Positions 16,810-63,166 of a stretch of 64,000 bases of DNA are shown piece by piece (position 1 is the first letter of the stretch; every line of letters begins with the position of its first letter). The stretch covers positions 47,161 through 111,160 of the IMG/VR virus record IMGVR_UViG_3300047325_000170; one strand, written 5' to 3'. The translations under genes and the position numbers were made by a program. Under the pieces are notes generated by a model. The model searched no databases, was not told the origin of the DNA, and saw nothing but the letters and a program-made list of their open reading frames with translations. Source of the stretch: a virus.

Positions 16810-16921
16810 GTCACTCTCTCCTTGAGAGGAGATCAACAAACTCTAACTTACCCTGCATCTAGCGAACAGGCTCTTCAGCCCTAGCGCTCAGGTAATCTTG
16901 CGTGTACCTCTGGAGAGAGGC

Positions 16922-39516: not shown

Positions 39517-39948
39517 TTATCGGGGATTGCTCAGCACTTGCCGGATGACGTGCTCACACTGGTCGATGTCGCCGTTGATCTGGGAGCCAGAGAAACGCAG
39601 GACGGTCCAACCTAGACTCTCAAGCTCCACCTGCCGGCGCTTGTCACGCGCCTTCTGGGCGGGGGTTGAGTGGTAGGCGGCACCGTCACATTCGATAGCC
39701 ACCAGAGATCCCGGGATTGCGAAATCGAGGTAGTAGTACCCGCGTATCCGGCGCTTGACCGGGTATTGGGGCGTCGCTGAGATGCCCCAGCGTTTGAGGG
39801 CGGACCCCATCCGGATCTCGATCCAGGTTGGTTGTGGTCGCCGCCTTCTGTTTTTAACAGTACTAGAGCTATGCTTGCGTTTCGGTCGAGTTCGAGGACG
39901 GGCAGCTTTCTTCTTCGCCTTCTTGAGGGTCTTTTTCTTAACTGCCAA
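39517..39948 (-). CDS. DUF559/Vsr-like endonuclease with basic N-terminus
   Basis: QYPV...YYLDFA...VAIECDGAAYH...RDKRRQ..LESLGWTVLRF. Confidence 0.8.
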   Translation of the reverse strand: MAVKKKTLKKAKKKAARPRTRPKRKHSSSTVKNRRRRPQPTWIEIRMGSALKRWGISATPQYPVKRRIRGYYYLDFAIPGSLVAIECDGAAYHSTPAQKARDKRRQVELESLGWTVLRFSGSQINGDIDQCEHVIRQVLSNPR

Positions 39949-42433
39949 GGCGAATTACTAAGGAACATTCACATCTGGGATGCAGCGTCGGGGCAGCACT
40001 GAGCCTGCGGCGAGCGGAGCTTTGGTTCTCCCAGAGGTCGGGTGCAGCCAGGCACTCATCGCAGCACTCGGCCTCCCGCGCAAGCTGCAGGGGGACGCCC
40101 GTGAGGTGGGCAGCGGAGGCGTAGCCGAACCAGTAGCTCTGCGGAAGCTCGGTGTTGGCGATGATCTCCAGGCGGTAGCGGACACCATCGAAGATCGCAT
40201 TGACCTTCGCGGGGAGGTCTTTTGGATCAGCCGTGTTCTTGATAGCCCGGATCGTCGGGCGCGCGAGATCTCCCACGAGGCGATTGACGGTTCGCTCATT
40301 GAACTCCGTCAGTGCCGCCCGTTCACTTGTGAAGGGATCGGCGAGCGCGGGAAGCTCGCTCTCATCCCAGAAGCGGGCGACCCCCGCATGGAAGGCCGGC
40401 TGGAGGTAGCGCTGCGAGAGGGTTAGAATGCGCCCCTTCACGAGCTCAAAGAGGAGCTTTGAGAACTGCGGCTCCTCCTCCGGGGTCATGTTGATATGCA
40501 ACTGGCCCTGCTCGATACTGGCGCCCCGGAGATCTTCAAAGAGCTCACCGATCTCCGTATAGAAGCCAGCCAGGCTCGTCGTCATGTCGACGGAGTGCGC
40601 GGAGACGTCTTCAGAGAGGAAGAGACCCTCGCCCTTGCGCTTGGGACCGAGACGCTTGCCATGCTGATTGGCGGGGCGGTTCTTATTATCGGTTCCCTTG
40701 GACGTCGTCTTCGGATCAGCGCTCGGTCCTGGAGGGAGGGCGAAGTGCCCCTTCGGTGCAGCAACAGGCTTCTTGACCTGGGTCGTCTTCGCAACGGTCC
40801 GCTTGCCGCCGCCTGTTGTGACCGCGTGCTTTGTGGTCGTAATAGCGTGGGCGCCCTGCGCAGCACCCTGCTCGGGCGGAGCATCAAGCTCCTTTTGCTT
40901 GAGCTTGAGATCCATATCGGAGTGATCGCTGAGATCAGCGGCGGCGTTCATGTCAGCCTTGTGCTTCTGAAGCATGATCTTGCCGTGGTCTTCAAGGTCC
41001 GTCGTGCCTGTGAGCTTGACGATATCCTGCGGGATCAGGAAGCGGGTCAGGTAGGTATCATCCCACTGTGCTTCGGTGAAGGGCTGAAGACCAATGCGCT
41101 TACGGAACTCCGAGAAGGTGAGGGCATTGGCTTGGAGGAGCGCAAGGTTGTGGGCTTCACGCTTGATCTGTGACTCGACTTCGATCTCTTCAAAGATGAG
41201 TTCGGCCCAGTTCTTCTCGATGTCCTCATAGAGTTCAAAGCCGCCCTCTTGGAGGATCTCGCGGAAGATCTCCTGAGAGATCGAACGTGAGAGGACGTTC
41301 TGGAAGTGCTTGATCTGATCGTGCATCTCGACGGACATCGCATCAGCCGTTGAACGGTTGGCCGTATCACCCTGGCCCATCGCGACACCCGAGACTCCGA
41401 GCCCGGAGAAGGACCGGTTCTGGAAGTGCTCGAGGTAGGGTTCGAGGTTGATTGCCTCACCTTCGGCACCGACCACGTTGAACTCAACAGACTCCGACGT
41501 AACGAGGGTGGCATCCGGCGGCGCATTGGCAACGAGCTTCTTGTAATAGTCGAGTTGTTCTTCGGTTGCTTGGAAGCCCGGCGTTGGCTCACCCACCCGT
41601 ACTTGGGTGAAGGGAAAGGCAAAGCGAAAGGCCAGGCGCGAGGTGTGGTCCTCGATAGTCCGCAGCATACGAACATCATCAAGGACGGGCCCAAGGAAGG
41701 GCGCCCCATACGCAAAGCCATCCTCGCGATCCGTCGTAATGTGAATGATCTCATCAGGCGTAAACTCAACGCGCTGCTTGGGATCTTGGGGACGGGCCTT
41801 TGCTCCCCAGGGCCATTGCTCGTAGCGAATGACATTATTGTTGGGATCACGCACCGCGCGCATCGTCGCGGGGTGGAGGAGTTCATACGCAGCGATAGGA
41901 TCTTGCGGGACAAGGATCGGCTTTTGATCTTCCTTGCCCTTTTGCTTAATCGCCGGAACGCCCTTGACGTTCACTCCCTTGGGGAGGGTGGGCTGCTTGC
42001 GACGATTCTTATAGAGGTAGACATTCGCATAGGTGACGAGATCCCGCGCAATGTCCTGGAATAAGGCGTCGATATGATCGTGCTTCGGGTCGGCATCGAT
42101 GATGAGACGCAGGCGAACCTTGAGATATTTGTCGATAGCCGGTTTGAGCGTGAGGATCTTATAGCCACGTAGGAAGATACCGTTCGTGAACTTCGTGACC
42201 GTCTGCTTGATGTAGCCGTCGGTCTGTACGCCCTGGTGAATAGCGTAGAGGTTGGAGAGCGGCTCCTCGAAGATCTCCTGAGGACGACGGCGCGTGTAGC
42301 CATCCCAGGGACCACGTGTCGGAGAGATCTGGCGTGACTGATAGGGCTTCGTCCGAGGCGAGACAAACTCAACGGCTGCGGGTGCAGACGTCTTCGTCGG
42401 TACGACAAGCTCTTGGTTCAGAAAGTCCGCCAA
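39938..42433 (-). CDS. Portal protein with C-terminal MuF-like domain
   Basis: DLVTYANVYL, EIIHI..DREDGFAYGAP, LGVS...G.GDTANRSTA; C-terminal RLEIIANTE...CCDEC...LHPRCEC. Confidence 0.8.
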   Translation of the reverse strand: MADFLNQELVVPTKTSAPAAVEFVSPRTKPYQSRQISPTRGPWDGYTRRRPQEIFEEPLSNLYAIHQGVQTDGYIKQTVTKFTNGIFLRGYKILTLKPAIDKYLKVRLRLIIDADPKHDHIDALFQDIARDLVTYANVYLYKNRRKQPTLPKGVNVKGVPAIKQKGKEDQKPILVPQDPIAAYELLHPATMRAVRDPNNNVIRYEQWPWGAKARPQDPKQRVEFTPDEIIHITTDREDGFAYGAPFLGPVLDDVRMLRTIEDHTSRLAFRFAFPFTQVRVGEPTPGFQATEEQLDYYKKLVANAPPDATLVTSESVEFNVVGAEGEAINLEPYLEHFQNRSFSGLGVSGVAMGQGDTANRSTADAMSVEMHDQIKHFQNVLSRSISQEIFREILQEGGFELYEDIEKNWAELIFEEIEVESQIKREAHNLALLQANALTFSEFRKRIGLQPFTEAQWDDTYLTRFLIPQDIVKLTGTTDLEDHGKIMLQKHKADMNAAADLSDHSDMDLKLKQKELDAPPEQGAAQGAHAITTTKHAVTTGGGKRTVAKTTQVKKPVAAPKGHFALPPGPSADPKTTSKGTDNKNRPANQHGKRLGPKRKGEGLFLSEDVSAHSVDMTTSLAGFYTEIGELFEDLRGASIEQGQLHINMTPEEEPQFSKLLFELVKGRILTLSQRYLQPAFHAGVARFWDESELPALADPFTSERAALTEFNERTVNRLVGDLARPTIRAIKNTADPKDLPAKVNAIFDGVRYRLEIIANTELPQSYWFGYASAAHLTGVPLQLAREAECCDECLAAPDLWENQSSARRRLSAAPTLHPRCECSLVIRLGS

Positions 42434-46338: not shown

Positions 46339-48234
46339 TTAGAACCCCGTACGTCGACCCTTATAGCCGCGGCCACCGCGCTGAAAGTAGTCTTGTTGAT
46401 CGAGCCTAGCCCTACTGCTCTCACCGGGGACGCCGGGGGCAGTCTTGATTTCCTCTGCTCGTATCATACCAGAACTAGCCAAACGCAAGTCTTCTTCGAG
46501 GTTCTCTTGCTCGAGCGCGGGATCTTCGGTCTTCTTGAGGTAGTTGGGGCGGCGCTTCTCTTTCTCGCCATCCGCTTGCTTCTTACGCTCCATGTAGCGT
46601 GAGCCGAGGGGTGGCTCGATGAAGGCTTTCAGCAAGCTGCCGTGGGTCTTGACCCCGTACTCACAGTAGAGGCCCCAGTTCGCCAGCATCAGGGCATCGA
46701 CGGCGTGCTCGTTCTCTGAGGTGTACTTGGGTTCACCGGAGACGGTGATACGCACGACGACATAGTTGATGAGCTGGTTCTTGAGTTCGTCATCGAAGGG
46801 AGACATCACCATCTCCCCCGCATCGAACTTGTTTACCAGGCGATTGACCATCTCGGGCTTGATGCGCCTTTTCTCAAGACGCTTGGAGGCAGGGTCGAGG
46901 ACCTCAACGCCTTCCGAGAAGTTGACCCGAACGATCTTCTTGTGCAGGTTCCAGGCGGGGTCAGTTGGGTCTTTACACTCCATACCGAGGCGAATCATCG
47001 CTTCGATCTGATGCTCTCCGTAGCCCGCATCCATGTAGTAGAAGTTCGGTGAGAAGAGCTTATTGATCTGCACCAGCTCCCTGACCGCATTGTCGAGGGT
47101 GAACTGTGACTTCGGGATCTCCTTGCGGTGGACGACCTTGATGTAGTCGAAGGGCTGCTCGAGAGCCTTGGAGTACGCATCCGATCCCACATCAGCTTTG
47201 CGTGCCTCGATGATGAGGATCTGGGTGCCCGCCCCGTACTTATCCCAGTCGACACCAACAATGCGATAGACCGAGTCATTACGGTCAAGGCGGTTAGCGT
47301 AGCCAAAGACTGGGTACTTCGGCGACATACCTGGGTAGGGGAAGTCATCAGCACCGCGGATCACCGCAGCGTCAATCGTGTCCTTGTTAAAGACACCCGT
47401 CGCTTCTTCGCCGAACTCAGCGAGGAATTCACGGGCAAAGGCGTCGACGGAGTACTGCTTACGGTACTCAAGCTCGAGATCTTCATTCCAGTTTGGAATG
47501 GCTTCGTAGCAGGTCTTGTGGAAGGCTTTCCACCCACGCGGAGGGTCGGTGCATAGACGGTAGAAGCGCTGCCGCTTACCGGTGGGCGTGGAAGTGAGGA
47601 TGACTTCCATGGTGGGATCCTGCGCGGGGATGGCGAGGATCGAATCGAGGTCAGCGTCGGTGAGGTAGTCGGCCTCGTCGATGTAGATCAGACCGACGCC
47701 GTGGCCTTGACCACGGACCGCATCGCCCTTGCCACCAGACTTGGTGCCGGCGGTGATGAAGTTGATGAAGCCGCCATTCTTGAAGCGGATAACGAAGGGA
47801 TTCTTGACGTCCTGATCGATGCTCTCGTTGAAGATCTCAGGCTTGGTGTCGATGAACTGCTGATGCATCGTATGGTAGAGCTCAGCGACCTGGCGCTCAA
47901 GGGGGGCCACAATAAGAACGCCCCGACCTTGCACGAAGCTCATGTGGAGTGACTTCACGATGCACATTGCCGACTTTCCGGCTCGTCGTGAGACTCGAAC
48001 GACCTTCTTAAGACCGGGGGTTTCGATGATCTCTTGTTGCCAGGGACGAGTTAACCATCCCTCAGTGACCTGCTTGAACTCGCGCTCGATGCCATCGACA
48101 TCGACGTAGCTCCGCAACTGAACCTTCGGTGGGAAGACCGTCTCCGCCCAGATAAGCGGGTACTTCAGAACTGCTTGGATAGCAGCCTGGTCACCCGACG
48201 TTAGATTGGTGAGGAGGTCCTTGGCGATAGCCAG
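46339..48234 (-). CDS. Terminase large subunit
   Basis: RPWQ, SRRAGKS (Walker A), IYIDEAD (Walker B), TSTPTG, REFLAEF, GVDWD, HAVDAL; start extended to CTG at 48234 behind GAGGT. Confidence 0.9.
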   Translation of the reverse strand: MAIAKDLLTNLTSGDQAAIQAVLKYPLIWAETVFPPKVQLRSYVDVDGIEREFKQVTEGWLTRPWQQEIIETPGLKKVVRVSRRAGKSAMCIVKSLHMSFVQGRGVLIVAPLERQVAELYHTMHQQFIDTKPEIFNESIDQDVKNPFVIRFKNGGFINFITAGTKSGGKGDAVRGQGHGVGLIYIDEADYLTDADLDSILAIPAQDPTMEVILTSTPTGKRQRFYRLCTDPPRGWKAFHKTCYEAIPNWNEDLELEYRKQYSVDAFAREFLAEFGEEATGVFNKDTIDAAVIRGADDFPYPGMSPKYPVFGYANRLDRNDSVYRIVGVDWDKYGAGTQILIIEARKADVGSDAYSKALEQPFDYIKVVHRKEIPKSQFTLDNAVRELVQINKLFSPNFYYMDAGYGEHQIEAMIRLGMECKDPTDPAWNLHKKIVRVNFSEGVEVLDPASKRLEKRRIKPEMVNRLVNKFDAGEMVMSPFDDELKNQLINYVVVRITVSGEPKYTSENEHAVDALMLANWGLYCEYGVKTHGSLLKAFIEPPLGSRYMERKKQADGEKEKRRPNYLKKTEDPALEQENLEEDLRLASSGMIRAEEIKTAPGVPGESSRARLDQQDYFQRGGRGYKGRRTGF

Positions 48235-52125: not shown

Positions 52126-52172
52126 GATCTTCTCTGTCTTTTTGATCTTCTCTGTCTTTTTGATCTTCTCTG
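52126..52172. repeat. 18-bp tandem repeat, ~2.6 copies (GATCTTCTCTGTCTTTTT)
   Basis: Copies start at 52126, 52144, 52162. Confidence 0.9.
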
Positions 52173-52770: not shown

Positions 52771-52853
52771 CTTCAAGACAAAACTTCAAGACAGGGATCA
52801 ACTTCAAGACAAGGATCGACTTCAAGACAAGGATCAGCTTCAAGACAAGGATC
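52771..52853. repeat. Iteron-like direct repeats, CTTCAAGACA(A/G)GGATC
   Basis: CTTCAAGACA cores at 52771, 52784, 52802, 52820, 52838 (spacing 13, 18, 18, 18). Confidence 0.9.
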
Positions 52854-53226
52854 CCTGAGATCAAGAACCAGAGCGAGCAAGAGCCGGCCCCCCTCCCCAG
52901 GTGCGACAAAAGTAGGAGGGCCGTAAGAGATCTCAAAAGTGAGAAATCTGTCAGGGGGTCCACGTCCTACGGACCCCTTGCGCCATGCGGGTTCCGAGCC
53001 CCCGGGGTCGGATCCGGGCGGAGTCTTCCGCACGGGACTAGTTCTGGTCACCCAGCCACGTTGCCAAGGGGCGGGGGCGTGGACGCCTCGGCTATCCATG
53101 CTGCCGTCTGACGCCTCGGTTACTGTCGCAACAACCTGCACCGCAGGGTACGCCACGTGTGCCAGGCGTCTTCCCTTTTTCCTCCTACTCTCACTTGCCT
53201 TCCGTCTCTTGATTGGAGATCTTATC

Positions 53227-53376
53227 GTGAACGCACTCTACTCGTTCTTCGACTCCGTCGCTCCCACCATCATCCGCCTCGGCTTCGGTACCGGGCTCGT
53301 CACCGTCATCTGGTACGCTGCTACCTACCTCTTCTCATCTATCGTACATAGTCTGGTCCATGCAGTGGGGGGCTAG
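53227..53376 (+). CDS. Small membrane protein (49 aa)
   Basis: GTG behind GGAG; hydrophobic. Confidence 0.6.
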   Translation: MNALYSFFDSVAPTIIRLGFGTGLVTVIWYAATYLFSSIVHSLVHAVGG

Positions 53377-53461
53377 CGCCCCCCACACCCCCCGCCTCCC
53401 TACGACCACGACTTGAGTGGCGGGGAGGCGAATCACCTTCTCTACTTCGGGAGACTTCACC

Positions 53462-53659
53462 ATGCGTATGCTCTTCTACAAGGCCTCGATCTTCTCTTGG
53501 GTCAACAATGCCACGGGCAAGACCTGGTCGAAGGACTTCAAGCTCGGTCTCGGTGCAGCCATGATCTACATGACCGCTGCCCAACTGACCGGCTACCTCG
53601 CTCGTCTCGGCGCGACCAAAGAAGGCCGAGACGTCCTCAAGTCCCTGGTCTCACGCTAG
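53462..53659 (+). CDS. Hypothetical protein (65 aa)
   Basis: ATG behind GGAG; followed by terminator 53664-53689. Confidence 0.65.
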   Translation: MRMLFYKASIFSWVNNATGKTWSKDFKLGLGAAMIYMTAAQLTGYLARLGATKEGRDVLKSLVSR

Positions 53660-53957
53660 TCCCGAACCCCCGCTGCGGCGGGGGTTCTTACTTGCGTCCT
53701 CGTGCTCTCTGTATAGCGAATCTTCGGGTGCTCTTTGTAGCGAATTCCCAGTCCCTCGCTGGTCTGTATAGCGAATCTGTGGAGGGACTGGCACCCCACC
53801 CTTTGGGAAGCGATTTCCATCCCCTTCCCTCCACCCATCCCCACAAATCGCCACCATTCCACGGGGCAGTCACGGGTGCGCACACACATCACTCAATATA
53901 CGACGTCCCAAGGGGCTGGGATGTAGACAACTTGCTTCTCATTGAAGGAGATCTCAC

Positions 53958-54245
53958 ATGGATCAAGCCACCTACCAGGCCAAGGTCGACGTCGCTTTCA
54001 TGAACCTCTACCACAGCCTCAAGAAGAACCCGTTCTCGCGTTGGCTGGCGGTCGTGAAGTTCTACACCGTCATCATGGAGCACAATCCCAAGCTCAAGGG
54101 CGCCGAGCTCAAGACGGCCGCCAAGCGTGAGGCACTCGATGCAGCTCGTCGCCAGATCCTCAAGGTCGCGGCGCAATGCGTGAACGAAGCGAACCTCGCG
54201 CCTACCGTCAAGGTAATCGAGGACCTCGTCGCCCTTCCCGCCTAG
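53958..54245 (+). CDS. Hypothetical protein (95 aa)
   Basis: RBS AAGGAG; terminator follows. Confidence 0.75.
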   Translation: MDQATYQAKVDVAFMNLYHSLKKNPFSRWLAVVKFYTVIMEHNPKLKGAELKTAAKREALDAARRQILKVAAQCVNEANLAPTVKVIEDLVALPA

Positions 54246-54320
54246 AGACCCACCCTCAGCAATCGCGCTGGGGGTTTTCTCTTTTCACGCTGCGGAGAGG
54301 ATGGGACATGGAGGTGACCT

Positions 54321-54506
54321 ATGGAACTCGAACCCAACATCGCGCAGATGGACGCCACGGGCAAGACCTACTGCGGCATGTGCTCCGAAGCGGTGTATGC
54401 GGACTCGGACTGGCACACGGTCCCCACAACCACCGTCTCGGGCGCCCACACTATCCTCTGCCACTCGTGCTACCTCGACTATACCGCCATCAAAGCAGAA
54501 ATCTAG
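54321..54506 (+). CDS. Small zinc-finger protein
   Basis: CGMC...CHSC; RBS GGAGGT. Confidence 0.7.
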   Translation: MELEPNIAQMDATGKTYCGMCSEAVYADSDWHTVPTTTVSGAHTILCHSCYLDYTAIKAEI

Positions 54507-54655
54507 TACCTCGGCATGGCGGACACCGGCCCCTAAAATCGCTACCAACCCTCGCCCTATGGGTGAGGGTTTTCTCCCTCCATGCTCACAAATCGCTACC
54601 CACCCCTGAAAATCGCCACGAACTTTTGAGTGGGAGATCCCTGGAGGTAATCAAC

Positions 54656-54850
54656 ATGATTCGTGATATGTCCGGCTATCGCCCGCCACGCAAGCTCTGC
54701 GTCGACATGACCGATGAGGAGTTTCGTGACTACGAAGACTGGGAAATCTGGCGTACCGCGGTCTACATACGACCACGTTATCAGCTCATTCCCTCGAGAC
54801 AAACCCCGACGGGTCGCATCCTCATGCTGGTGCACTCAAAGCCACGCTGA
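54656..54850 (+). CDS. Hypothetical protein (64 aa)
   Basis: ATG behind GGAGGT. Confidence 0.65.
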   Translation: MIRDMSGYRPPRKLCVDMTDEEFRDYEDWEIWRTAVYIRPRYQLIPSRQTPTGRILMLVHSKPR

Positions 54851-54857
54851 TGAGGGG

Positions 54858-54985
54858 CGGGGAGGCGGACAGGCAGCTCGGCGCGACCGAGTCGGTCCCA
54901 TGCGTACGGTTTAGCATTCGGTGCTTCCAGCATGGGGAGAGGCTAGCATAGGCCCTCGCCCTGTCCCACCCTTTTCGTCACCCCA
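54858..54985 (+). ncRNA. Candidate multi-branched structured RNA or leader
   Basis: GGACAGG/CCTGTCC closing stem around three hairpins; directly after motif copy 54842. Confidence 0.4.
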
Positions 54986-55007
54986 AACTCTCCACAGGAG
55001 ATCAAGC

Positions 55008-55061
55008 ATGGTGTACACCGAAGTCGACGGCGTGCTCGCGAAGATTATCTTCAAGAAATAG
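55008..55061 (+). CDS. 17-aa minigene MVYTEVDGVLAKIIFKK
   Basis: RBS AGGAG, stop, then terminator 55067-55100. Confidence 0.5.
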   Translation: MVYTEVDGVLAKIIFKK

Positions 55062-55140
55062 CGCCCAAACCCACAACGCTGCGGCGTTGTGGGTTTTTCT
55101 TCCCCCACGCTTGGAAGAGGGTGAGCTGCGGAGGTGAACC

Positions 55141-55359
55141 ATGGAAGAACTCGACTGGCTTCTAGCATGGGAAGAGGCTTGGGAACCCTGCATCAGCTGC
55201 TATCGGAGAGCAGCTCTGCCCGACGTGACCGAACGTGAGCTCGTCGAGCTGGGTGCCATGTATGGCCCGGGCGGCGAGTACGACGGGCTCTACAGTGGCG
55301 GCCTTTGCCGTCTGTGCGAGGCAGGTGCCGAGCGTGGCCGTGACCCTAGCGAGAGCTAG
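55141..55359 (+). CDS. Hypothetical protein (72 aa) with CxxC pairs
   Basis: RBS GGAGGT; shares AMYGPGGEYDGLY with 56092..56523. Confidence 0.7.
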   Translation: MEELDWLLAWEEAWEPCISCYRRAALPDVTERELVELGAMYGPGGEYDGLYSGGLCRLCEAGAERGRDPSES

Positions 55360-55411
55360 GGTCTCTTTCTTTTCCAACCATCTCGCTCAGGTTCCACGTT
55401 GTGAAGTGGAA

Positions 55412-55716
55412 GGGATGCGGAAGCAAAAGGAGGCCGCCATACTCAAGGCGGACCGCTGCCCGGAAGTATCGTCGTATCGGAAGCGTAGGTGATTCTCGGT
55501 AAATCCTACGCATTGCCGACGGGACGAGTGACCGGTGACTGGTTGCATAAAACCCTATTCATACGATGCTTGTGAGCAACATAAGACATAACCCTGCACC
55601 CTCCCCGGCATGCGCCCCCGGTGAGACCCACGAGAGGGAAAGACATGAGGTTGCAGGCGGTTGGGTATCGTATGGCTTCCACTCTCCCCACAATGCTCCG
55701 GCATTGTGGGGTTTTC
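55412..55716 (+). ncRNA. Candidate ~300-nt structured ncRNA
   Basis: Bounded by motif copy 55394 and terminator 55687-55716; four nested helices; no convincing RBS-led ORF. Confidence 0.5.
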
Positions 55717-55742
55717 TCAACTTTCTTCATAGGAGAGCTACC

Positions 55743-55994
55743 ATGGCTTACAATCGCCAGAAGATTGCCATTGCTTCGGCAATCGAAAAGCAAGAGCTCA
55801 ACATCGTGGTTCGCGAGCTCGTCGCTGCGCGCCATCGCTACGAGCGCTCCTTCCAACCGGGCAGCCACATCAATCGTGATTTCGCTCAGCACGAGCTCAT
55901 GATTGCCAACTCCAACTACCTGCGTTTAACCCTCAGCAACGGGTTAAACCATATGCGCTTCAAGTACCCTGAGTTCTACTCAGACCTGGTTTAG
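55743..55994 (+). CDS. Hypothetical protein (83 aa)
   Basis: ATG behind AGGAG. Confidence 0.7.
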   Translation: MAYNRQKIAIASAIEKQELNIVVRELVAARHRYERSFQPGSHINRDFAQHELMIANSNYLRLTLSNGLNHMRFKYPEFYSDLV

Positions 55995-56091
55995 CTCTAT
56001 GAGCCTAAGTTAGATGTAGCCACGCTCCCAAGGGGATGCGAGGTGAAGCCTATCTTGGGCTCAGCTTTTTCGCTTTAACCTGGAGGTTAAC

Positions 56092-56523
56092 ATGGCCACA
56101 CAAGTCGATTTCACGCCAATCTTCGAATCCCGCGAGTACAAGCTCGCTCTCGAGCGTGCCGAGAAGCCCGCTCAGTTCCCCTATCGCGTACGCAAGGCGG
56201 CGTACCAGCGCAAGACCTACACGAAGTGGGATGCCGCTATCGACCGCCTACGCGAGGCGTACACCACCAAGCTGCAAGGCGAGTACACGCGCCTTCGTCT
56301 CAAGGAGGCGAAAACCGAGCTGGAAGGCCAGCTCAGCCTGCTCGAGGATGACGGGTTCGCGCCTGAACCCGATCCGGATCAGGCCTACGAGCGCTGGCTC
56401 GAGCGCGGTGACCACGAGACCGAACGTGACCTCGCCGAGCACGATGCCATGTATGGCCCGGGCGGCGAGTACGACGGGCTCTACAACCGCTGCTCGCAGC
56501 CCGACGACGAGCTGCCCTTCTAG
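56092..56523 (+). CDS. Hypothetical protein (143 aa), acidic C-terminus ending DDELPF
   Basis: RBS GGAGGT; terminator follows. Confidence 0.75.
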   Translation: MATQVDFTPIFESREYKLALERAEKPAQFPYRVRKAAYQRKTYTKWDAAIDRLREAYTTKLQGEYTRLRLKEAKTELEGQLSLLEDDGFAPEPDPDQAYERWLERGDHETERDLAEHDAMYGPGGEYDGLYNRCSQPDDELPF

Positions 56524-56634
56524 GGCATACCCCCGCTTCGGCGGGGGTATCCTCTTCCCACATCTGCCCACCCATGAAAATCGCCACGAACTTTTCGCCA
56601 CGCTTTAAGTGGGAGAGCCACGGAGGTAACGCAG

Positions 56635-56931
56635 ATGAAGCAAGTAGGCACCTTGGTCTTGCCCGATGGCGAGATGCTCCAGGTTTTCCAGACCCAGTAC
56701 ACCGATGGCCAAACCGCCATCGAGATCTTCGCGGCGGATGGCCCGTACGCACGCCTCAGCGTGAATATGGCGCCCGACTACGTCTGCCAAGACGGCGAGT
56801 TCGTTGTCAAGTCGTGGTCCGGGAACGAGGAGATCGTCGAGATCGCCGAGGCCTCGGGTCTCTTCGAGTACGCCGGGAAAGTCGCTGGCAACGGCTTGGT
56901 CTTCGGACCGGTGTGGAAACTCAAGGGCTAG
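56635..56931 (+). CDS. Hypothetical protein (98 aa)
   Basis: RBS GGAGGT; terminator follows. Confidence 0.75.
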   Translation: MKQVGTLVLPDGEMLQVFQTQYTDGQTAIEIFAADGPYARLSVNMAPDYVCQDGEFVVKSWSGNEEIVEIAEASGLFEYAGKVAGNGLVFGPVWKLKG

Positions 56932-56999
56932 AGGCCCGCCCCCGACCCAGCTTGATGCTGGGTCGGGGGCTTCTCACAAACCAAGAAAGGAATGATACG

Positions 57000-57185
57000 A
57001 TGAAAACTAAAGCCATTTACAAGTTCGCAACCGGCGACGTAATTCCCGAAGGCGCTGTCTATCTGAATACCGTCGTCCAAACCCGCGCACGGGGCGTTCG
57101 AGGGAGGAATCAGCCAGAAGCGGCGGGCCCGTGGTCGCCTTGCTGGCTGGTCTGGCATTACTTTCTCGTTGAGGTTGACGCGTGA
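57000..57185 (+). CDS. Hypothetical protein (61 aa)
   Basis: RBS AAAGGA; MKTKAIYKF... Confidence 0.6.
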   Translation: MKTKAIYKFATGDVIPEGAVYLNTVVQTRARGVRGRNQPEAAGPWSPCWLVWHYFLVEVDA

Positions 57186-57349
57186 ATAGCGAGCTTTACA
57201 AACTGTGGCAAGAGATCGGTGCTCTACGGGAACGCGTTCAAGAACTCGAGGCGTACGCCGAAGAACTCGACGCGGCCAACGTGGCCTTAAGCAAGCAGGT
57301 GGAGATCTTGACGAGCACTAGAGGGTCTTCACGCTTTCCACGCTCATAG
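57182..57349 (+). CDS. Small coiled-coil protein (55 aa)
   Basis: GTG overlapping previous stop; RBS GAGGT. Confidence 0.55.
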   Translation: MNSELYKLWQEIGALRERVQELEAYAEELDAANVALSKQVEILTSTRGSSRFPRS

Positions 57350-57431
57350 TGGAAGGGCCGCGCTGGCACCCCCGCGTTAGCGGGGGTTTCCTCTTTCCAC
57401 GCTCGTAGTGGGTGTGAACTGGAGGTGACCT

Positions 57432-57599
57432 ATGAACTCATGCCACGTGTGCAACAAGGCTCTCACGCACGCAGAAGCCATCGATGAGGACCTCAGCCTC
57501 ATCATTCAGGAACCTATCTGGATGCGGGTCAGCATCTGTGCAGCATGTGCTGCATCAATGGATGCTGCCAGGAACGCCGACGTCTTCAGCCCCAACTAA
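57432..57599 (+). CDS. Small zinc-finger protein (55 aa)
   Basis: CHVC...CAAC; RBS GGAGGT; terminator follows. Confidence 0.65.
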   Translation: MNSCHVCNKALTHAEAIDEDLSLIIQEPIWMRVSICAACAASMDAARNADVFSPN

Positions 57600-57667
57600 C
57601 CTTAGCCCCGCTTATGCGGGGCTTCTCTCTTGCCACGCTGCGAGAGGCTAAGAATTGGAGGTGAAAG

Positions 57668-58087
57668 ATGGCTATTACCAGCTTTAGTGGCCCGTGGGCC
57701 TGCCTATCGAACTTCTGGCCAGTCATGATCTGGGTCGAAGACGAACTCTACCCGAGCGCCGAGCATGCCTTTCAGGCAATGAAGACGCTCAACTCTGCCG
57801 AACGTCGCTCTATCGCGCTGGCCGCCACTCCCGGCCAAGCGAAGAAGGCCGGGCGCGCGCTATCCCTGCGAGAAGACTGGGAGCGCGTCAAGGATGAGCA
57901 GATGCTGAAGATCCTACGCGTCAAGTTCGCCGTCGCCCCTCTCGCCGAGAAGCTGCTCGAGACGGGCGACCAGGAACTCGTCGAAGGGAACTGGTGGGGT
58001 GATACCTACTGGGGCGTCTGTAAGGGCACCGGGCAGAATAAGCTCGGCAAGAGTCTGATGACCGTGCGAGCTGAGCTTAAGGGGTAG
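57668..58087 (+). CDS. NADAR (YbiA-like) family protein
   Basis: LSNFW...YPSAEHAFQAMK...DWERVK..M...KF...LLETG...LVEGN.WGDTYWG...GQNKLGKSLM.VR. Confidence 0.9.
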   Translation: MAITSFSGPWACLSNFWPVMIWVEDELYPSAEHAFQAMKTLNSAERRSIALAATPGQAKKAGRALSLREDWERVKDEQMLKILRVKFAVAPLAEKLLETGDQELVEGNWWGDTYWGVCKGTGQNKLGKSLMTVRAELKG

Positions 58088-58153
58088 GCGTAAGCCTACC
58101 CCTTCTCTCTTGCCACGCTGTGAAGTGGATGTGAGTTGGAGGTAATCATCACT

Positions 58154-58633
58154 ATGAGAAAGACCATCTTCCTCGCACTCAAGTGGACCCAAGACACAGG
58201 TTCAGCTTTCGCTGTCCAAGAACTAGCTGCTGGCGCCCCCTTCGGTCTCGAGGGTTGGGTTGTCCTCTCTTGGTGGTCGACGTACCACCAAGCAGAACAA
58301 GCCAGGTCGCTGTACGAAACCCACTATCTCCTTCACGGAGATGAGGACGACAGCTACATCGGCGAAGCCGTCGAGTACATGCCAGACAATGCCGATCATC
58401 CGCTCAACCTGCTCTCTTGGTTCATCAAGAACTGTCTCACGGATCTGGCTCAGAACACCAGTCCCCTCGTCATCACCCCGGTCAACGACGAGTACACGTC
58501 GCTCGAGGTTCACAACGAGCACGCGCATACCCGCTTGGGCTGCCTTACTCCCAGCATGCGGCGTGCCGTCTACCTGATGGTGGCAAAGTATAACCTGGAC
58601 CTCCGCCGATTTGCAGCAGAAGTGGGGATGTGA
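58154..58633 (+). CDS. Hypothetical protein (159 aa)
   Basis: ATG behind GGAGGT. Confidence 0.7.
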   Translation: MRKTIFLALKWTQDTGSAFAVQELAAGAPFGLEGWVVLSWWSTYHQAEQARSLYETHYLLHGDEDDSYIGEAVEYMPDNADHPLNLLSWFIKNCLTDLAQNTSPLVITPVNDEYTSLEVHNEHAHTRLGCLTPSMRRAVYLMVAKYNLDLRRFAAEVGM

Positions 58634-58661
58634 GGTGGCATAGATCCACGCTTGGGAGGGG

Positions 58662-58792
58662 GAGTGACGTGAGGATCTGTGCGTCCGAAGCTCAGAACCC
58701 AAACTCCCTGTGTAAGCAGGAGCATGCCCGTTGGTGAGTTGTTCATTCAACCACCAACGGGTCTTTCTTTTCAAGCTATCGCTCACGTCAAA
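58662..58792 (+). ncRNA. Candidate ~130-nt structured RNA
   Basis: After motif copy 58646; TGACGTGAG/CTCACGTCA 9-bp closing helix with internal hairpins. Confidence 0.4.
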
Positions 58793-58904
58793 GGTGATGT
58801 CTTGAGTTGAAGCTTGGGAATGCTCATTCCGTCTGTGCTTTTCCACGCTAGGAGTGGGAGGGTCGTGCCAGAGGCATTTGCCTCACACCTGGAAGGAGAT
58901 CTCC

Positions 58905-59270
58905 ATGGCAGACAACACCCAAGCGGATCGTAAGCCAACCGAACTCGACGAGGCCCTCGCGGCCGTTCCCGTCGGTGGTATCGCGATCTACAACCTGCGT
59001 CCGCAAGACGCGAAGTCGCTGAAAGCCCGTTTCACCGTCCTCTTCGGCGGTCTCGGCGCAGTCATCGGCTGCTCGTACTTCGTCGGCCAGAATGGCCCGT
59101 ACGTCCAGCATTCCGCCAAGACGGACCGTATCGTCAACGGCAAGCCGGACTACATCACCACGGCGAAGTTCACGCCCGAGGTGCAGGCCAAGATCACCAA
59201 CGCGGTGGGCAACATGCTCGCCAAGTTGGAACCGCCTACCAAGGCGAAACCGACCGCCGAACTGGTCTAA
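58905..59270 (+). CDS. SpoVG-like nucleic-acid-binding protein
   Basis: LKARFTV...GQNGPYVQ.S.K...DY...PEVQAKITNAV resembles the SpoVG pattern; RBS AAGGAG. Confidence 0.55.
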   Translation: MADNTQADRKPTELDEALAAVPVGGIAIYNLRPQDAKSLKARFTVLFGGLGAVIGCSYFVGQNGPYVQHSAKTDRIVNGKPDYITTAKFTPEVQAKITNAVGNMLAKLEPPTKAKPTAELV

Positions 59271-59435
59271 GCAAACCAACCACGTCAAATCCCCCTTGTT
59301 TCGCACTTGCGAGCAAGGGGGATTTTGCTTCCTAGTCCAAGCATTTCTCCCCTGTCCAAGCACGGCTCAGTTCAAATGCCGTAGTTGGGCCAGGATGACG
59401 CCGTGGAGTGGAAGTGCCGTGATTGGAGGTTCACC

Positions 59436-59567
59436 ATGAACCAGCGTACCTCAGCCTGGACGATCCTTTGGATCATCCTCTCAACGACCGTTCTCTGCTA
59501 CCTTGCTTACCAAGGCATAGGCCATGTCCTCGACATCCCCTGCAACCACATCGGAGCAATCTGTTGA
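59436..59567 (+). CDS. Small membrane protein (43 aa)
   Basis: RBS GGAGGT; one hydrophobic helix. Confidence 0.6.
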   Translation: MNQRTSAWTILWIILSTTVLCYLAYQGIGHVLDIPCNHIGAIC

Positions 59568-59735
59568 TCTACGACATCGTAAACAAGGTCAAGATCCGTC
59601 CCCGGACGATCATCAGAGCTGAGATGCCTGAAGATGCTCGAGCTCGCTGGAATCAGGTTTACGCTCGCCTACGGGCCGGAAAGTCTCCCGTCGAATAGTC
59701 CACGTCCGAAGTGGTGGAGAATTGGAGGATCTCTC

Positions 59736-59897
59736 ATGATCACACGCACCATCTTCACCGGATTCCCCGGCCTCCTCACGGGAGTGCTCGCGGGCGGATC
59801 GCTCTTCGCAAGCTTCGGGTGGAAGATCATCTTCGGATTGATCATCATCCCGTTCGTTCCATTTCCCTTTAACGTTCCAGTTATGTTGCTGATCTAA
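59736..59897 (+). CDS. Small membrane protein (53 aa)
   Basis: RBS GGAGG; hydrophobic. Confidence 0.6.
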   Translation: MITRTIFTGFPGLLTGVLAGGSLFASFGWKIIFGLIIIPFVPFPFNVPVMLLI

Positions 59898-60022
59898 TGG
59901 CAAAGATCAAGCAGCAAATCTACCCGCTGCTCGGTACCCTGCTCTTCGCGAGCCTCGTCATGACCCTCGGGACCGAAGCAGCCACCTACCTGCGTATCTA
60001 CACCGCGAGGTACCTCACATGA
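59897..60022 (+). CDS. Small membrane protein (41 aa)
   Basis: TAATG coupling to upstream gene; hydrophobic. Confidence 0.5.
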   Translation: MAKIKQQIYPLLGTLLFASLVMTLGTEAATYLRIYTARYLT

Positions 60023-60138
60023 GCCATTTCATTCTCAACTTGGCAACCGCCGCCAATCCCTTCCTCGTCGGTGGGGTGATCTTCGTGGTCACGCTCTTTG
60101 TTCTGATGGTTTTCTTGTCGTTCAACAAGGCCATCTAA
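60019..60138 (+). CDS. Small membrane protein (39 aa)
   Basis: ATGA coupling; hydrophobic. Confidence 0.5.
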   Translation: MSHFILNLATAANPFLVGGVIFVVTLFVLMVFLSFNKAI

Positions 60139-60225
60139 TACCCCGGCCGACTGTGCCCAGATGCTCTTGATGGTCACGCCTCGAGTGGAAGAAGGTCGAA
60201 TCCCATCGTCCAAAGGAGGTCTAAC

Positions 60226-60405
60226 ATGCTAACCCTCGCAGGTCTCAGCGCGCTCGGCATGCACATGGTCATGTCCGCCAGCGCTATCAAGCTCAAGTAT
60301 GCCATCGTGACCGGCAATCTGCCGTACCTGGCACACCACGAAGTCTACAAAGTCACGATGCATGCGGTACGTCCGCTGCTCTTCTGGCATCCGCTGGGAC
60401 GCTAA
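60226..60405 (+). CDS. Hypothetical protein (59 aa)
   Basis: RBS AAGGAGGT. Confidence 0.65.
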   Translation: MLTLAGLSALGMHMVMSASAIKLKYAIVTGNLPYLAHHEVYKVTMHAVRPLLFWHPLGR

Positions 60406-60434
60406 AGAATCTCTTCAGCATAAGGAGTAACCAC

Positions 60435-60689
60435 ATGGTCATCCTCGTTGTCGTCGTCTGTTCGATCATTTACCTTGTCGCACGCGGCGGCAACGAGGCC
60501 TTCGGCTCCAGCATCGGCACCTTCATGATCTTTGCTGGCTTTGGCCTCATAGCACTCATGGCGCTCTTCGCTCTCTCAGCGATCATCGTGCCTCTCCTGA
60601 TGGGACTCTTCATTCCCATCGCTTTCATCTGGGGACTCTTCCTGATCTTTCGCTGGGTCTTCTTCGGACCCAAGGAGGCCTGCAAGTGA
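60435..60689 (+). CDS. Membrane protein (84 aa)
   Basis: RBS TAAGGAG; mostly hydrophobic. Confidence 0.7.
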   Translation: MVILVVVVCSIIYLVARGGNEAFGSSIGTFMIFAGFGLIALMALFALSAIIVPLLMGLFIPIAFIWGLFLIFRWVFFGPKEACK

Positions 60690-61140
60690 AGATCCTTACG
60701 TCGTATCTTCGCTACCAATACTACATGGCCAAGGCCCGCTACTACAACCTCAAGGTCAAGTACCTTGAGTGGCGCTGGATGCGCACCTTTCACCGATGAG
60801 CAAGCAATACCGCTGCTCCGGTTCTATCGAAGCAGGCTGGGCGCTCATTGGCAGCGTGAAGAACTTGATTCTTTACGCTGCCAATGAGTCTTGCGTGGAT
60901 GTCAAGATAAAAGTTACTGCCGGCCTCCGCGGTCGCACCATCTACTTTGCCGTGGCGGATGAGGATCATGCGAAGGTCCTACAATTCCAGACGATGGTGA
61001 AGTCGATCCGTAAAACGGCATGTTAGGCAACTGATGGGAAAGTTTGGTTTCTTCATCAGAGGTAAACTCTTCAACCTCTTCGTGGGGGTTTGGGGGCAAC
61101 GCCCCCATATCTACCTCTACCCACGAATCAAGCTCTGGCC

Positions 61141-61527
61141 ATGGGGAAAGAAACGAAAATGAGCTGGCAACACCAAGAGACCCGCATGTACCTGGGAGGT
61201 ACCCTTCCCTTAGTCTCCTTCGCCAACGACCAAGGAGACCGCGCAGAGTTCTTGCCCTGTAACCCAGAGAAGCAAGGGCTCTATCCCGATTTCCTCGGGT
61301 ACTTGAAGTTCTATCTTCACGGTTCCCATACCGAGACCAAAGTCGGCCTCAACGTGAAGGGGGGCGAGATCACCTGGCACACCACGAGCGAGGCGACCCG
61401 CCGCTTCGCCAAGGAAGACTTCCTCGCGTTGATCGGGGAAGGCATTCGCTACGCCGAGCGAGCGGGATTTACGTTCCCCTCCTACTTTCGCTTGAAGAAG
61501 TCGCCTCCCACCCTTCACATCATCTAA
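61141..61527 (+). CDS. Hypothetical protein upstream of Cas7-like gene
   Basis: Co-oriented ORF ending 9 nt before next start; start uncertain (61141 or 61159). Confidence 0.55.
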   Translation: MGKETKMSWQHQETRMYLGGTLPLVSFANDQGDRAEFLPCNPEKQGLYPDFLGYLKFYLHGSHTETKVGLNVKGGEITWHTTSEATRRFAKEDFLALIGEGIRYAERAGFTFPSYFRLKKSPPTLHII

Positions 61528-61536
61528 GGAGAAGGC

Positions 61537-62235
61537 ATGCCCAGAACGGCAAAACCCACCGATATCGATCTCAAAGCCGCCGCCAAGAAAGCCATCGCAG
61601 AAGCGACCTCCGGCTCCCACGATCTCACGATCACGATCCCCGAGATCGAGAAGCGCAAGGTCGTCATCCGCGTCGTCGGCGACACCCCGCTCATCACCCA
61701 TTGCTGGTCCGAGAAGGCCAAAGAGATGATGCGGATCAAGCAGACCAAGGGTGCGGCCCTGGCAAAGTCCGCCAAGAACGCAGCCGAAGACGTCGATGGA
61801 GCCACCTACTGGCTCGACAAGGAGAAAGGGCACGTCGGCTTCCCGGCCATTGCATTCAAAGCATCGATGGTTGATGCGGCGGTTGCCCTGGGCGGCAAGA
61901 AGACCGAAACGCGCCGAGCCTTTCGCATCGTCGGCATTCCCACCGTCCAGTACGGTGAGCTCGTGAAGATCGAGTACCAAGAGATGGTCCAGCGCGAAGA
62001 CATGGTGCGCGTTGGCATGGGCACGGCCGATCTTCGCTACCGTCCCGAATTCCGTGGCTGGCACGCCGACGTCACCTTCATCTACGACGCACGCCAGATC
62101 AGTCCGGCACAAATCATCTCCCTGCTCAACCAGGCCGGCTTCTCAACGGGCATCGGTGAGTGGCGGCCCGAACGGGATGGATCCTACGGGATGTTCTCGG
62201 CCACCGAAATCATCGGAGACATCACCCCACAATGA
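61537..62235 (+). CDS. Stand-alone Cas7/RAMP-like protein
   Basis: RAMP-like order of elements: IRVVGDTPLITH, FPAIAFKASMVDAA, RPEFRGW, terminal Gly-rich loop AGFSTGIGEWRPERDGSYGMF; RBS TAAGGAG. Confidence 0.7.
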   Translation: MPRTAKPTDIDLKAAAKKAIAEATSGSHDLTITIPEIEKRKVVIRVVGDTPLITHCWSEKAKEMMRIKQTKGAALAKSAKNAAEDVDGATYWLDKEKGHVGFPAIAFKASMVDAAVALGGKKTETRRAFRIVGIPTVQYGELVKIEYQEMVQREDMVRVGMGTADLRYRPEFRGWHADVTFIYDARQISPAQIISLLNQAGFSTGIGEWRPERDGSYGMFSATEIIGDITPQ

Positions 62236-62738
62236 CCAAAGCTGTTCAAGCGCGCCTCGATGAGCTCGCCGGGAGATCCGGCGGCCTCACCGTGGCCACC
62301 GTCCTCAAGGATGCCCGCAATCCCAAGAGCCCCCTCCACACCGAGATCGATTGGGATAAGGAGCGCAACTACCAAGCCGGTCTCAAAGAGCAAGCTCGCG
62401 AACTCATTCGCCGCTATACCGTTTCTTACGTCAAGGGCGAAAGGAAGTTCCAGAAGTACATCTACAATCCACGGACCCATCAACGCGAGAGCGTCGTGCA
62501 AGCCCTCGATTCAGCACAGGTCGCAAGCAACATCGCGATCACCCTTCACGACGAACTCGTGAACTTTGCCAATCGCAATGCGGCCTACTTCAAGATGTTT
62601 CCCAACCTCAAGAAGGCCTCATGGATGCTCGACCAACTCATCGATGAGTTCAAGACTGTCAGCAAGACGATCTCGGCTGCTGCGACAACCAAACCCCTCA
62701 AGACCACCCCGAAGACCACCCGCAAGAAGGTCGCCTAG
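62232..62738 (+). CDS. Accessory protein (168 aa) coupled to Cas7-like gene
   Basis: ATGA overlap; GGLTVATVLKDARNPKSPLH..IDWD...QARELIR; basic tail. Confidence 0.7.
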   Translation: MTKAVQARLDELAGRSGGLTVATVLKDARNPKSPLHTEIDWDKERNYQAGLKEQARELIRRYTVSYVKGERKFQKYIYNPRTHQRESVVQALDSAQVASNIAITLHDELVNFANRNAAYFKMFPNLKKASWMLDQLIDEFKTVSKTISAAATTKPLKTTPKTTRKKVA

Positions 62739-62743
62739 ATCCC

Positions 62744-63088
62744 GGCAGGCTCGGCGTGGCGGGGCACGTCCGGGCGCGGTTAGGCCCGGCACGGCACGGC
62801 AGGCGTGGCTTGGCCCGGCAGGTCCAGGCCTGGCCTGGCTTGGCAGGTAAGGCAAGGCCCGGTGCGGCCCGGCGTGGCACGGCAACGCAAGGACCGGCAA
62901 GGCAGGCTTGGCAAGTCGGGGCGCGGTGCTGCTGGGCATGGCCAGGTCCCGCTTGGCACGGCAGGCAGGGTGTGTCCAGGCGAGGCGGGGCTTGGCAAGG
63001 CTTGGCAAGATGCGGCGTGGCAGGCGGGGCAGGCAAGGCAGGTAGGGCTTGGCTGGGCAAGGCCGGGCCCGGCGTGGCAGGCAGGGCA
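62744..63088 (+). repeat. Non-coding GGY-NN pentamer array punctuated by GGCA (candidate guide-RNA array)
   Basis: ~60 pentamers with near-constant GGC/GGT and variable dinucleotide; phase reset by GGCA tetramers. Confidence 0.85.
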
Positions 63089-63166
63089 AACATAATCCCG
63101 TTCCGAGATCCACGTCTCGAGTGGTTGAGTCGTGAAGTTATCTCTCTCTTTTCAAGGAGTTCACTT

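Follow-up and report, generated by a model that had tools for sequence, protein, structure and literature searches.

A twenty-copy bipartite motif in the early block of a phage contig: candidate promoters for a phage-encoded RNA polymerase

The final 64 kb (64,000 nucleotides, hereafter the window) of the 111,160-bp linear IMG/VR contig IMGVR_UViG_3300047325_000170, whose completeness is estimated at about 70%, contains a block of small genes in which one bipartite motif recurs 20 times on the + strand. On balance, and with a modest lean, we favor the reading that these sites are phage-specific promoters served by a phage-encoded RNA polymerase (RNAP), the likeliest being P0001, a 1912-aa protein encoded on the - strand (659-6397; all coordinates are those of the window). 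The parts of this statement, drawn from the DNA and its translations, differ in strength: from their position, the 20 sites very probably function as promoters; given that function, a phage-encoded polymerase is their probable reader; and that the reader is P0001 in particular we infer a little less firmly. A preliminary description of this DNA had suggested that the motif and a protein with a DxDGD loop form an early transcription system. The promoter half of that proposal fits every positional test, and the likeness of the DxDGD protein to two-barrel RNAPs holds up as well, whereas the pairing of the motif with P0001 is put forward here as a conjecture.

On the + strand of the window we count 17 copies of the strict pattern YCACG-N5-6-AGDGG, all between 53056 and 63110, with none elsewhere on that strand; on the - strand of the window there is one copy, at 6632. 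Across the whole contig the pattern is found 18 times on the + strand and once on the - strand, with a single + copy in the 47 kb outside the window. Three sites that depart from the pattern by one step, 53901 (CGACG), 59396 (TGACG) and 54616 (8-nt spacer), bring the total to 20, all on the + strand. The preliminary description had put the number at about 20 and had named seven examples, each of which we found at the coordinates given; its restriction of the motif to the + strand of the early block also held when checked contig-wide (17 strict copies in the block vs two elsewhere, counting both strands). In a first-order Markov simulation of the 11.4-kb block, 0.19 copies were expected by chance and the maximum in 1000 runs was two, an enrichment of roughly 90-fold. 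As a further background we used 80 loci of unrelated phage DNA (1.24 Mb, median GC 0.59), taken around relatives of a 232-aa protein discussed later, in which the pattern occurred at 0.11 per 10 kb per strand, vs about 15 in the block. An unbiased count of 4-mer dyads placed CCAC/CACG...AGTG/GTGG at the top of the block (p 1e-15 to 1e-11). Finally, a weight matrix, trained on the same 20 sites that it scores, gave them 20.7-34.2 bits when run over both contig strands, and the next matches reached 15.0 and 11.0 bits. Megablast of the early block against phage records returned no matches, and exact pattern searches for the terminator tail plus motif, or for the motif plus ribosome-binding site, returned single chance matches only.

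When the sites are aligned with the A of AGDGG as position 0, the full motif reads YCACGYY-N3-5-AGDGG-NN-G-N-G-NNN-YG-R-A and covers about 32 nt. The preliminary description had recognized the YCACG-N5-6-AGDGG core, but had missed the downstream half with its G-N-G and near-invariant YG. Among the 17 strict sites, G is present at +7 in 16 and at +9 in 16, +15 is usually a purine and +16 is usually A; among all 20, position +13 is invariably a pyrimidine and +14 is G in 19, the exception being A. At eight of the 20 sites the G at +14 is also the first G of a GGAGG Shine-Dalgarno sequence. Because YG at +13/+14 is retained at 11 of the 12 sites lacking GGAGG in that register (and YR at all 12), it is part of the motif and not a by-product of the ribosome-binding site. 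The positions interspersed among the conserved ones are near random (0.05-0.6 bits), suggesting selection on particular bases and not the recent copying of one segment. The right block, from AGDGG to YG, is rigid, while the left block, YCACGYY, floats by 1 nt, or by 3 nt in one copy.

The position of the motif relative to terminators and start codons carries the promoter reading. Five copies belong to cassettes of one geometry, in which the motif begins 9-11 nt past the stem of a strong terminator (hairpin plus T-tract) and the end of AGDGG lies 20 nt (25 nt at 58113) before an ATG. These cassettes are (i) 54285-54312, 9 nt past terminator 54252-54275 and ahead of the ATG at 54321, with GGAGG from +14; (ii) 55105-55132, 9 nt past terminator 55068-55095 and ahead of the ATG at 55141; (iii) 57397-57423, about 10 nt past a stem that ends at 57387 (57385 in a simple scan) and ahead of the ATG at 57432; (iv) 57633-57659, 9 nt past terminator 57604-57623 and ahead of the ATG at 57668, which opens a gene for a NADAR-domain protein; and (v) 58113-58140, 9 nt past terminator 58080-58103 and ahead of the ATG at 58154, the copy with the top score (34.2 bits). 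In all five the distance between terminator stem and ATG is just 44-50 nt, and the motif is the sole conserved element in this gap. Any gene placed behind an efficient terminator must have a promoter of its own, and we read the motif in the gap as that promoter. The claim that copies lie just after a terminator is borne out in full at these five sites and more loosely at 55394, 54616 and 56598; similarly, the claimed spacing of 8-10 nt to GGAGG applies to eight sites, where GGAGG starts exactly 9 nt past AGDGG, but not to the other 12.

A further seven copies lie 21-56 nt ahead of a start codon. They are found at 53406-53432 (CCACG-N5-AGTGG...CG), 41 nt before the ATG at 53462; at 56020-56047, 56 nt before the ATG at 56092; at 56598-56624, 22 nt before the ATG at 56635, with GGAGG from +14; at 58843-58869, 47 nt before the ATG at 58905; at 59700-59726, 21 nt before the ATG at 59736, again with GGAGG from +14; at 60174-60200, a copy beginning TCACG that stands 37 nt before the ATG at 60226 and heads a 2.5-kb multi-gene stretch (60226-62738); and at 63110-63136, the last copy, 42 nt before the ATG at 63167. 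The three variants are placed likewise: 53901-53927 (CGACG-N5-AGGGG...TA; 22.8 bits) lies 42 nt before the ATG at 53958, 54616-54645 (CCACG-N8-AGTGG; GGAGG from +14) 22 nt before the ATG at 54656, and 59396-59423 (TGACG-N6-AGTGG...TG; 23.4 bits) 24 nt before the ATG at 59436.

The remaining five copies head stretches that end in a terminator and hold no convincing open reading frame (ORF). The first copy, 53056-53083 (CCACG-N6-AGGGG...TG), precedes the first small ORF (53227) by 155 nt, across a structured stretch with a T-tract near 53180. The copy at 54842-54869 overlaps the 3' end of the ORF at 54656-54850; past it come about 150 nt in which no ORF convinces, then one of 17 codons and terminator 55068-55095. 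That at 55394-55421 heads a unit of about 320 nt without any ORF led by a ribosome-binding site, closed by terminator 55686-55711. At 57338-57364 the motif overlaps the end of the ORF at 57182-57349 and runs into terminator 57358-57387, leaving a unit of about 30-50 nt depending on the start. The fifth, 58646-58673, lies just past the stop of the ORF at 58154-58633, about 110 nt from a hairpin and T-tract near 58735-58770. Units of this kind are hard to explain if the motif is a translational signal and easy to explain if it is a promoter, and they thus favor the latter.

Two of these ORF-less units have features of their own. The segment 55394-55716 folds at -117.6 kcal/mol (z = -2.77; one of 200 shuffles folded as well), and Rfam gave no credible match anywhere in the early block, this segment included; from its sequence we consider it a candidate early non-coding RNA. 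In the other, terminator 57358-57387 follows the 57338 copy within about 20 nt and a second motif copy, 57397, comes right behind, so that 57338-57390 may represent either a tandem promoter arrangement or the source of a mini-transcript of about 30-50 nt.

The fixed spacing to the ribosome-binding site raises another explanation, that the motif acts in RNA as an element of the 5' leader (a processing site, the site of a translational regulator or an element like SAS/ESAS) in a block read from few upstream promoters. Eight copies, with GGAGG a constant 9 nt and ATG 20-25 nt past AGDGG, would suit such a role, as would conservation that runs well into the part that would be transcribed. Folding also lends it something: in the 12 AGTGG copies CCAC can pair with GTGG over 4 bp (5-6 bp in a few) around a 7-8-nt loop, and the free energy of the motif hairpin as RNA averages -5.1 kcal/mol, compared with -3.3 kcal/mol for shuffles. 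However, 12 of the 20 copies have no Shine-Dalgarno sequence in register and five have no adjacent ORF; no Rfam family matches; and with copies lying directly behind hairpin-plus-T-tract terminators, read-through transcripts to carry the element would be scarce. In the SAS/ESAS elements of Cluster K mycobacteriophages the ribosome-binding site is inside the motif and always a few nt before the start codon, an arrangement that the present sites, with GGAGG in register at 8 of 20 and five copies lacking an adjacent ORF, do not share. In addition, eight of the 20 copies (7 of the 17 strict ones) read AGAGG or AGGGG, which breaks the central pair (A-T in DNA, A-U in RNA), and the A of the left arm, kept in all 20, never compensates. 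A leader element is, on this evidence, distinctly unlikely.

The same substitutions speak to a hairpin in DNA. The preliminary description had weighed the CCAC/GTGG pairing against the promoters of phage N4 and had favored sequence recognition instead, since AGAGG and AGGGG disrupt the pairing, a judgment upheld by the eight broken sites and the lack of any compensating change. N4 promoters are extruded hairpins with a 5-7-bp stem and a 3-nt loop, and are read by a T7-like single-subunit enzyme. The present system resembles that of the N4 virion RNAP in having a short inverted repeat and early genes read by a giant polymerase, which is injected in N4 and for which injection is proposed here. 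It differs in that the N4 stem is stable, while here there are 4-6 bp around a 7-8-nt loop, broken in 8 of 20 copies, and the candidate polymerase is of the two-barrel type. We therefore set aside an N4-type hairpin promoter, the stem not being kept in all copies and the loop being too long.

The partial palindrome CCAC-N7-8-GTGG, with half-sites about one helical turn apart, would also be compatible with a DNA operator, i.e., with a dimeric repressor bound to the inverted repeat or with asymmetric stoperators of the L5 type that silence the early block. The stoperators of mycobacteriophage L5 are many, asymmetric, intergenic and co-oriented with transcription, a pattern that would suit this reading. 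Yet the arms are conserved unequally, the left being invariant and the T of the right being present in 12 of 20 copies (10 of the 17 strict), and conservation extends one way only, through GNG and YG; both features argue against a symmetric dimer operator and against an RNA hairpin. Further, the motif keeps a fixed register to terminators and start codons, the part of the gene set that was scanned showed no evident repressor or integrase, and an operator would leave the genes behind terminators without a promoter. We regard this explanation as very improbable.

Promoters of the sigma-70 class do not account for the block: sigma-70-like sites are not enriched (4 vs 3.7 expected in 12 kb) and none is placed ahead of these genes, and a -35/-10 pair does not fit the 44-50-nt gaps between terminator and ATG, which the motif fills, just as the preliminary description had held. 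A host RNAP might nonetheless be redirected to the motif, on the model of T4 late transcription with gp55, either by an alternative sigma factor or by a sigma-like or appropriator protein of the phage, one that went unrecognized or whose gene lies in the missing 30% or so of the genome. The incompleteness of the contig (about 70%) leaves room for such a protein; the intrinsic hairpin-plus-T terminators are the signal of the host enzyme; and compact single-block phage promoters served by the host core enzyme do exist, the T4 late promoter TATAAATA being an example. The two blocks, about one helical turn apart, also recall the -24/-12 elements of sigma-54 promoters, and CACG resembles part of the -24 element. 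Set against this, a search of the 111-kb contig for sigma-70 region 2 (Sigma70_r2) found none, while its controls matched in 11 of 14 genomes; the -35/-10 geometry misfits both the 15-16-nt core and the terminator-to-ATG gaps; and the phage encodes an RNAP-like protein of its own. The sigma-54 consensus has GG at -24 and GC at -12 (TGGCAC-N5-TTGC). Here the hallmark GG is replaced by T/G/C-C before CACG, and AGDGG stands in place of TTGC, and we do not class the sites as sigma-54 promoters; twenty activator-dependent promoters without upstream sites would, moreover, be odd. Recognition by a redirected host enzyme seems to us unlikely.

The alternative that we prefer, a phage-encoded enzyme, leads to P0001, the only polymerase candidate in the 111 kb available. 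P0001 had no match in Pfam, in PHROGs or, by tblastn, in 50,697 phage records, and phmmer against all PDB chain sequences reported no polymerase up to an E of 10. Only seven relatives emerged when 1.84 billion representatives were searched exhaustively with HMMER, giving an alignment of eight rows. Within this family, [AG]D[SF]DGD is kept in six of the seven rows that cover the loop (P0008 has GDTDQD, and P0006 is unaligned there); one member reads NADFDGD, the canonical beta' metal loop, and R-x-P occurs about 37 residues upstream of the loop. In P0001 itself the loop is DSDGD (residues 1410-1414), within a predicted double-psi beta-barrel (DPBB). When an AlphaFold model of residues 780-1620 was submitted to Foldseek, the best 50 matches were all RNAP largest subunits, headed by the beta' of the AR9 non-virion RNAP (E 2e-4), and VIA-align placed the DSDGD loop in the DPBB (Z 8.3-8.7, rmsd 2.4-3.1 A over 82-92 residues). 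As for a partner barrel, a family-conserved string, K-x7-K-G-T-V-V at about residues 942-950, some 460 residues upstream of the loop, resembles the K-x7-KGV of beta and recalls its two conserved lysines; hhalign against E. coli beta gave nothing for a beta-type barrel, and the fold rows barely cover the region around 942-950. As modeled, then, P0001 does look like a single-chain two-barrel RNAP in its DPBB and DxDGD character, and polymerase activity is predicted for it. Searches for other polymerase types in the contig found no family of the QDE-1-type RdRP (PF05183); a search for the T7-like RNAP family PF00940 was also empty, but is uninformative, since its control matched nowhere.

The genes around P0001 suggest how it could reach the cell. 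In order, they encode the sheath, two ORF products whose sole named match is 'major head protein' (phrog_9206), two paralogues of unknown function, a 1728-aa giant and then P0001, followed downstream by a 2231-aa giant, a lytic transglycosylase and baseplate proteins. Judged by this gene order, P0001 is in the tape-measure slot of a contractile tail module. Its family members share at their C-termini a hydrophobic Gly/Ala segment and a conserved end (..V..RD.R......KGR), and from its sequence this segment would suit a membrane-inserting or tail-lumen protein. The 1728-aa ORF just upstream (6397-11583, - strand) has a PD-(D/E)XK/Cas4-like segment at residues 976-1111 (phrog_1706, E 1.7e-10).

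Taken together, the 20 sites would represent one phage-specific promoter class in an early block of the host-takeover type, each heading a short unit that consists of promoter, Shine-Dalgarno sequence, small ORF or non-coding RNA, and intrinsic terminator. The promoter would be bipartite, with YCACGYY, a flexible spacer and a rigid AGDGG-NN-G-N-G-NNN-YG, and would span about -30 to +1; transcription would start on the near-invariant G at +14, or just ahead of it, and -1 would be a pyrimidine. RNAPs of the multisubunit type prefer a pyrimidine at -1 and a purine at +1, a preference that the YG at +13/+14 fits, which makes it a candidate start. In that case the 5' end of eight mRNAs would coincide with their GGAGG Shine-Dalgarno sequence or precede it by a few nt; were the start instead inside AGDGG-GNG, 5' leaders of about 12-25 nt would result. 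The enzyme would not be the host sigma-70 holoenzyme, and P0001 would be packaged in the virion and accompany the DNA into the cell, as happens with gp96 of Thermus phage P23-45.

Several observations weigh against this proposal. The roughly 30% of the genome that is missing may encode a non-virion polymerase or a sigma-like factor to which the motif belongs. Conservation continues for at least 13 nt past AGDGG, which is long for a promoter if the start is near AGDGG, and a start at +14 would unusually put the Shine-Dalgarno sequence at the very 5' end of eight mRNAs. As for P0001, confidence in its AlphaFold model, built from an eight-row alignment, is low (mean pLDDT 55.7); the hhalign match to E. 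coli beta' was weak (E 0.009, probability 4.6%), though it aligned the loop to NADFDGD; and the profile comparison with E. coli beta was null. No related genome in which to follow the motif came from locus searches with a 436-aa protein or the large terminase, and a locus search with the RNAP alignment turned up no relative in IMG/VR, metagenome contigs or GTDB contigs. Lastly, no common upstream motif was detected for the virion RNAP gp66 of a crAss-like phage (10.1101/2020.03.07.982082), indicating that injected two-barrel RNAPs need not use a consensus.

The closest parallel is P23-45, which has a virion RNAP fused to the tape-measure protein (gp96, with a TTATTCCTTTA-type motif) and a non-virion RNAP (gp64, with a motif of the TCTAGRGGC type); its motifs are compact, adjoin the start site and often directly follow the T-tract of a terminator (PMC10770324). 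Both phages have a two-barrel RNAP-like protein in the tape-measure position, many compact motifs at the starts of units and often past a T-tract, short pre-early or early units, and no sigma-70 consensus. Further, an AGRGG core in the gp64 motif lies about 9 nt ahead of the start, a distance equal to that between AGDGG and the near-invariant G here; we treat this as a lead, not as evidence of kinship. Conversely, P0001 has an ORF of its own, flanked by two other giant ORFs, and is not a tape-measure fusion, our phage is contractile-tailed, and its motif is about 32 nt long, bipartite, G+C-rich and flexible in its spacer. As a separate 1912-aa ORF with no sequence-detectable kinship, P0001 does not qualify as a tape-measure-fused virion RNAP of the gp96 type.

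Two other phages bear comparison. Bacillus phage 0305phi8-36 has 21-bp candidate phage-specific promoters, a two-barrel (QDE-1-like) RNAP encoded by orf99 and a host-takeover module of the SPO1 type (PMC2147016). It resembles the present contig in two ways: one end of its genome carries a block of small monocistronic units, and it has a repeated phage-only motif that was suggested as the recognition site of the phage polymerase. It differs in that the polymerase is a non-virion enzyme of another family and the motif was judged a middle-class promoter. In the crAss-like phage phi14:2, rifampicin-resistant early transcription is due to gp66, a giant single-chain two-barrel RNAP that the virion delivers (10.1101/2020.03.07.982082). 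No upstream motif shared by the gp66 transcripts was detected, in contrast to the very sharp motif here; the phi14:2 virion is podovirus-like and its sequences are unrelated.

Promoter recognition by single-chain two-barrel RNAPs is, to our knowledge, described only for P23-45, to which the multi-subunit enzymes of AR9 and phiKZ can be added. The promoter-polymerase pairs of T7, SP6 and N4 have become working tools and show that transcription can proceed without sigma factors. A sharp 20-copy consensus together with a candidate polymerase of an undescribed family makes a direct test possible. In its most explicit form, which we offer tentatively and think rather less likely to hold in every detail, our proposal is that a tail-delivered, single-chain two-barrel RNAP of an undescribed family reads a bipartite duplex promoter of about 30 bp and starts at the near-invariant G, that eight mRNAs open with their Shine-Dalgarno sequence, and that several early transcripts are non-coding. 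Such a promoter-polymerase pair, if real, would be self-contained and sigma-free, and open to reconstitution in vitro. Polymerases delivered from the tail, in the tape-measure slot, would then extend from a Thermus siphovirus to contractile-tailed phages, which would suggest that the few cultured examples understate how common injection-coupled early transcription is.

The layout of the contig sets the early block apart. From position 1 to about 52,640 the window is coding on the - strand, as are, from ORF calls and base skew, the 47 kb to its left; a second + strand block initially entertained for the left 3.6 kb of the contig was dropped, as the sequence there suggests - strand coding. The resulting - strand block of roughly 100 kb consists mostly of virion genes and includes, by family match, the large terminase (46339-48117), the portal (39938-42433) and the tail sheath (15130-16839), which marks the phage as contractile-tailed, as well as baseplate proteins and several giant ORFs; a glycosyltransferase gene and a primase-like gene lie near the left end of the contig. 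A late-promoter motif was looked for in the few - strand intergenic gaps, which gave nothing usable. Divergent from this block, about 30 small ORFs occupy the + strand from 52700 to the contig end at 64000. They have strong GGAGG-type ribosome-binding sites and almost all are without a known family, apart from the NADAR domain and two PHROG matches of unknown function.

Judged by its large terminase, the phage is nearest, among those in GenBank, to Moorella phage MTATph1 (36% identity) and 0305phi8-36 (29%; 29-33% for its group), both large myoviruses. Neither the P0001 family nor the present motif is found in these two very distant phages. The terminase kinship, the strong GGAGGTGA ribosome-binding sites and a G+C content of 58% hint at a host resembling a high-G+C Firmicute.

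Other repeated sequences were noted within the early block. An identical 19-nt string, made up of a terminator tail and the start of the motif (CTTCTCTCTTGCCACGCTG), is common to two cassettes (57623-57641 and 58103-58121) and hints at cassette shuffling, by analogy with the promoter-stem-loop cassettes of T4-type phages. Three TGTATAGCGAAT-like words lie about 30 bp apart at 53700-53785, and AAATCGCYAC, approximately the reverse complement of TGTATAGCGAAT, has five + strand copies (53843, 54534, 54592, 54612 and 56580); these words are possibly a second class of regulatory site in the left part of the block. Two motif copies are each closely preceded by a 27-nt segment (CCCACCC..TGAAAATCGCCACGAACTTTT), which is repeated at about 54597 and 56565. 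Between the stop of a 168-aa gene and the last motif copy, 62744-63088 is G+C-rich and without an ORF, and shows a 5-nt periodicity (GGYNN; TRF periods 5, 9, 10, 20 and 25).

The 232-aa protein whose relatives supplied the background loci is encoded at 61537-62235 (+ strand) and matches phrog_4652 (E 7e-28). It has 216 IMG/VR relatives at 40-53% identity, in contigs of many unrelated, smaller phages, mostly of 35-70 kb and without the motif; among phages the protein is widespread, of unknown function and not peculiar to this genome. Finally, two different 18-bp tandem repeats lie in the divergent region between the - and + blocks, next to the first motif copy: one at 52126-52172 (2.6 copies, 100% identity) and one at 52782-52853 (four copies of AACTTCAAGACAAGGATC, 92% identity). 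Possible roles for them are those of an origin, a packaging site or a regulator array.

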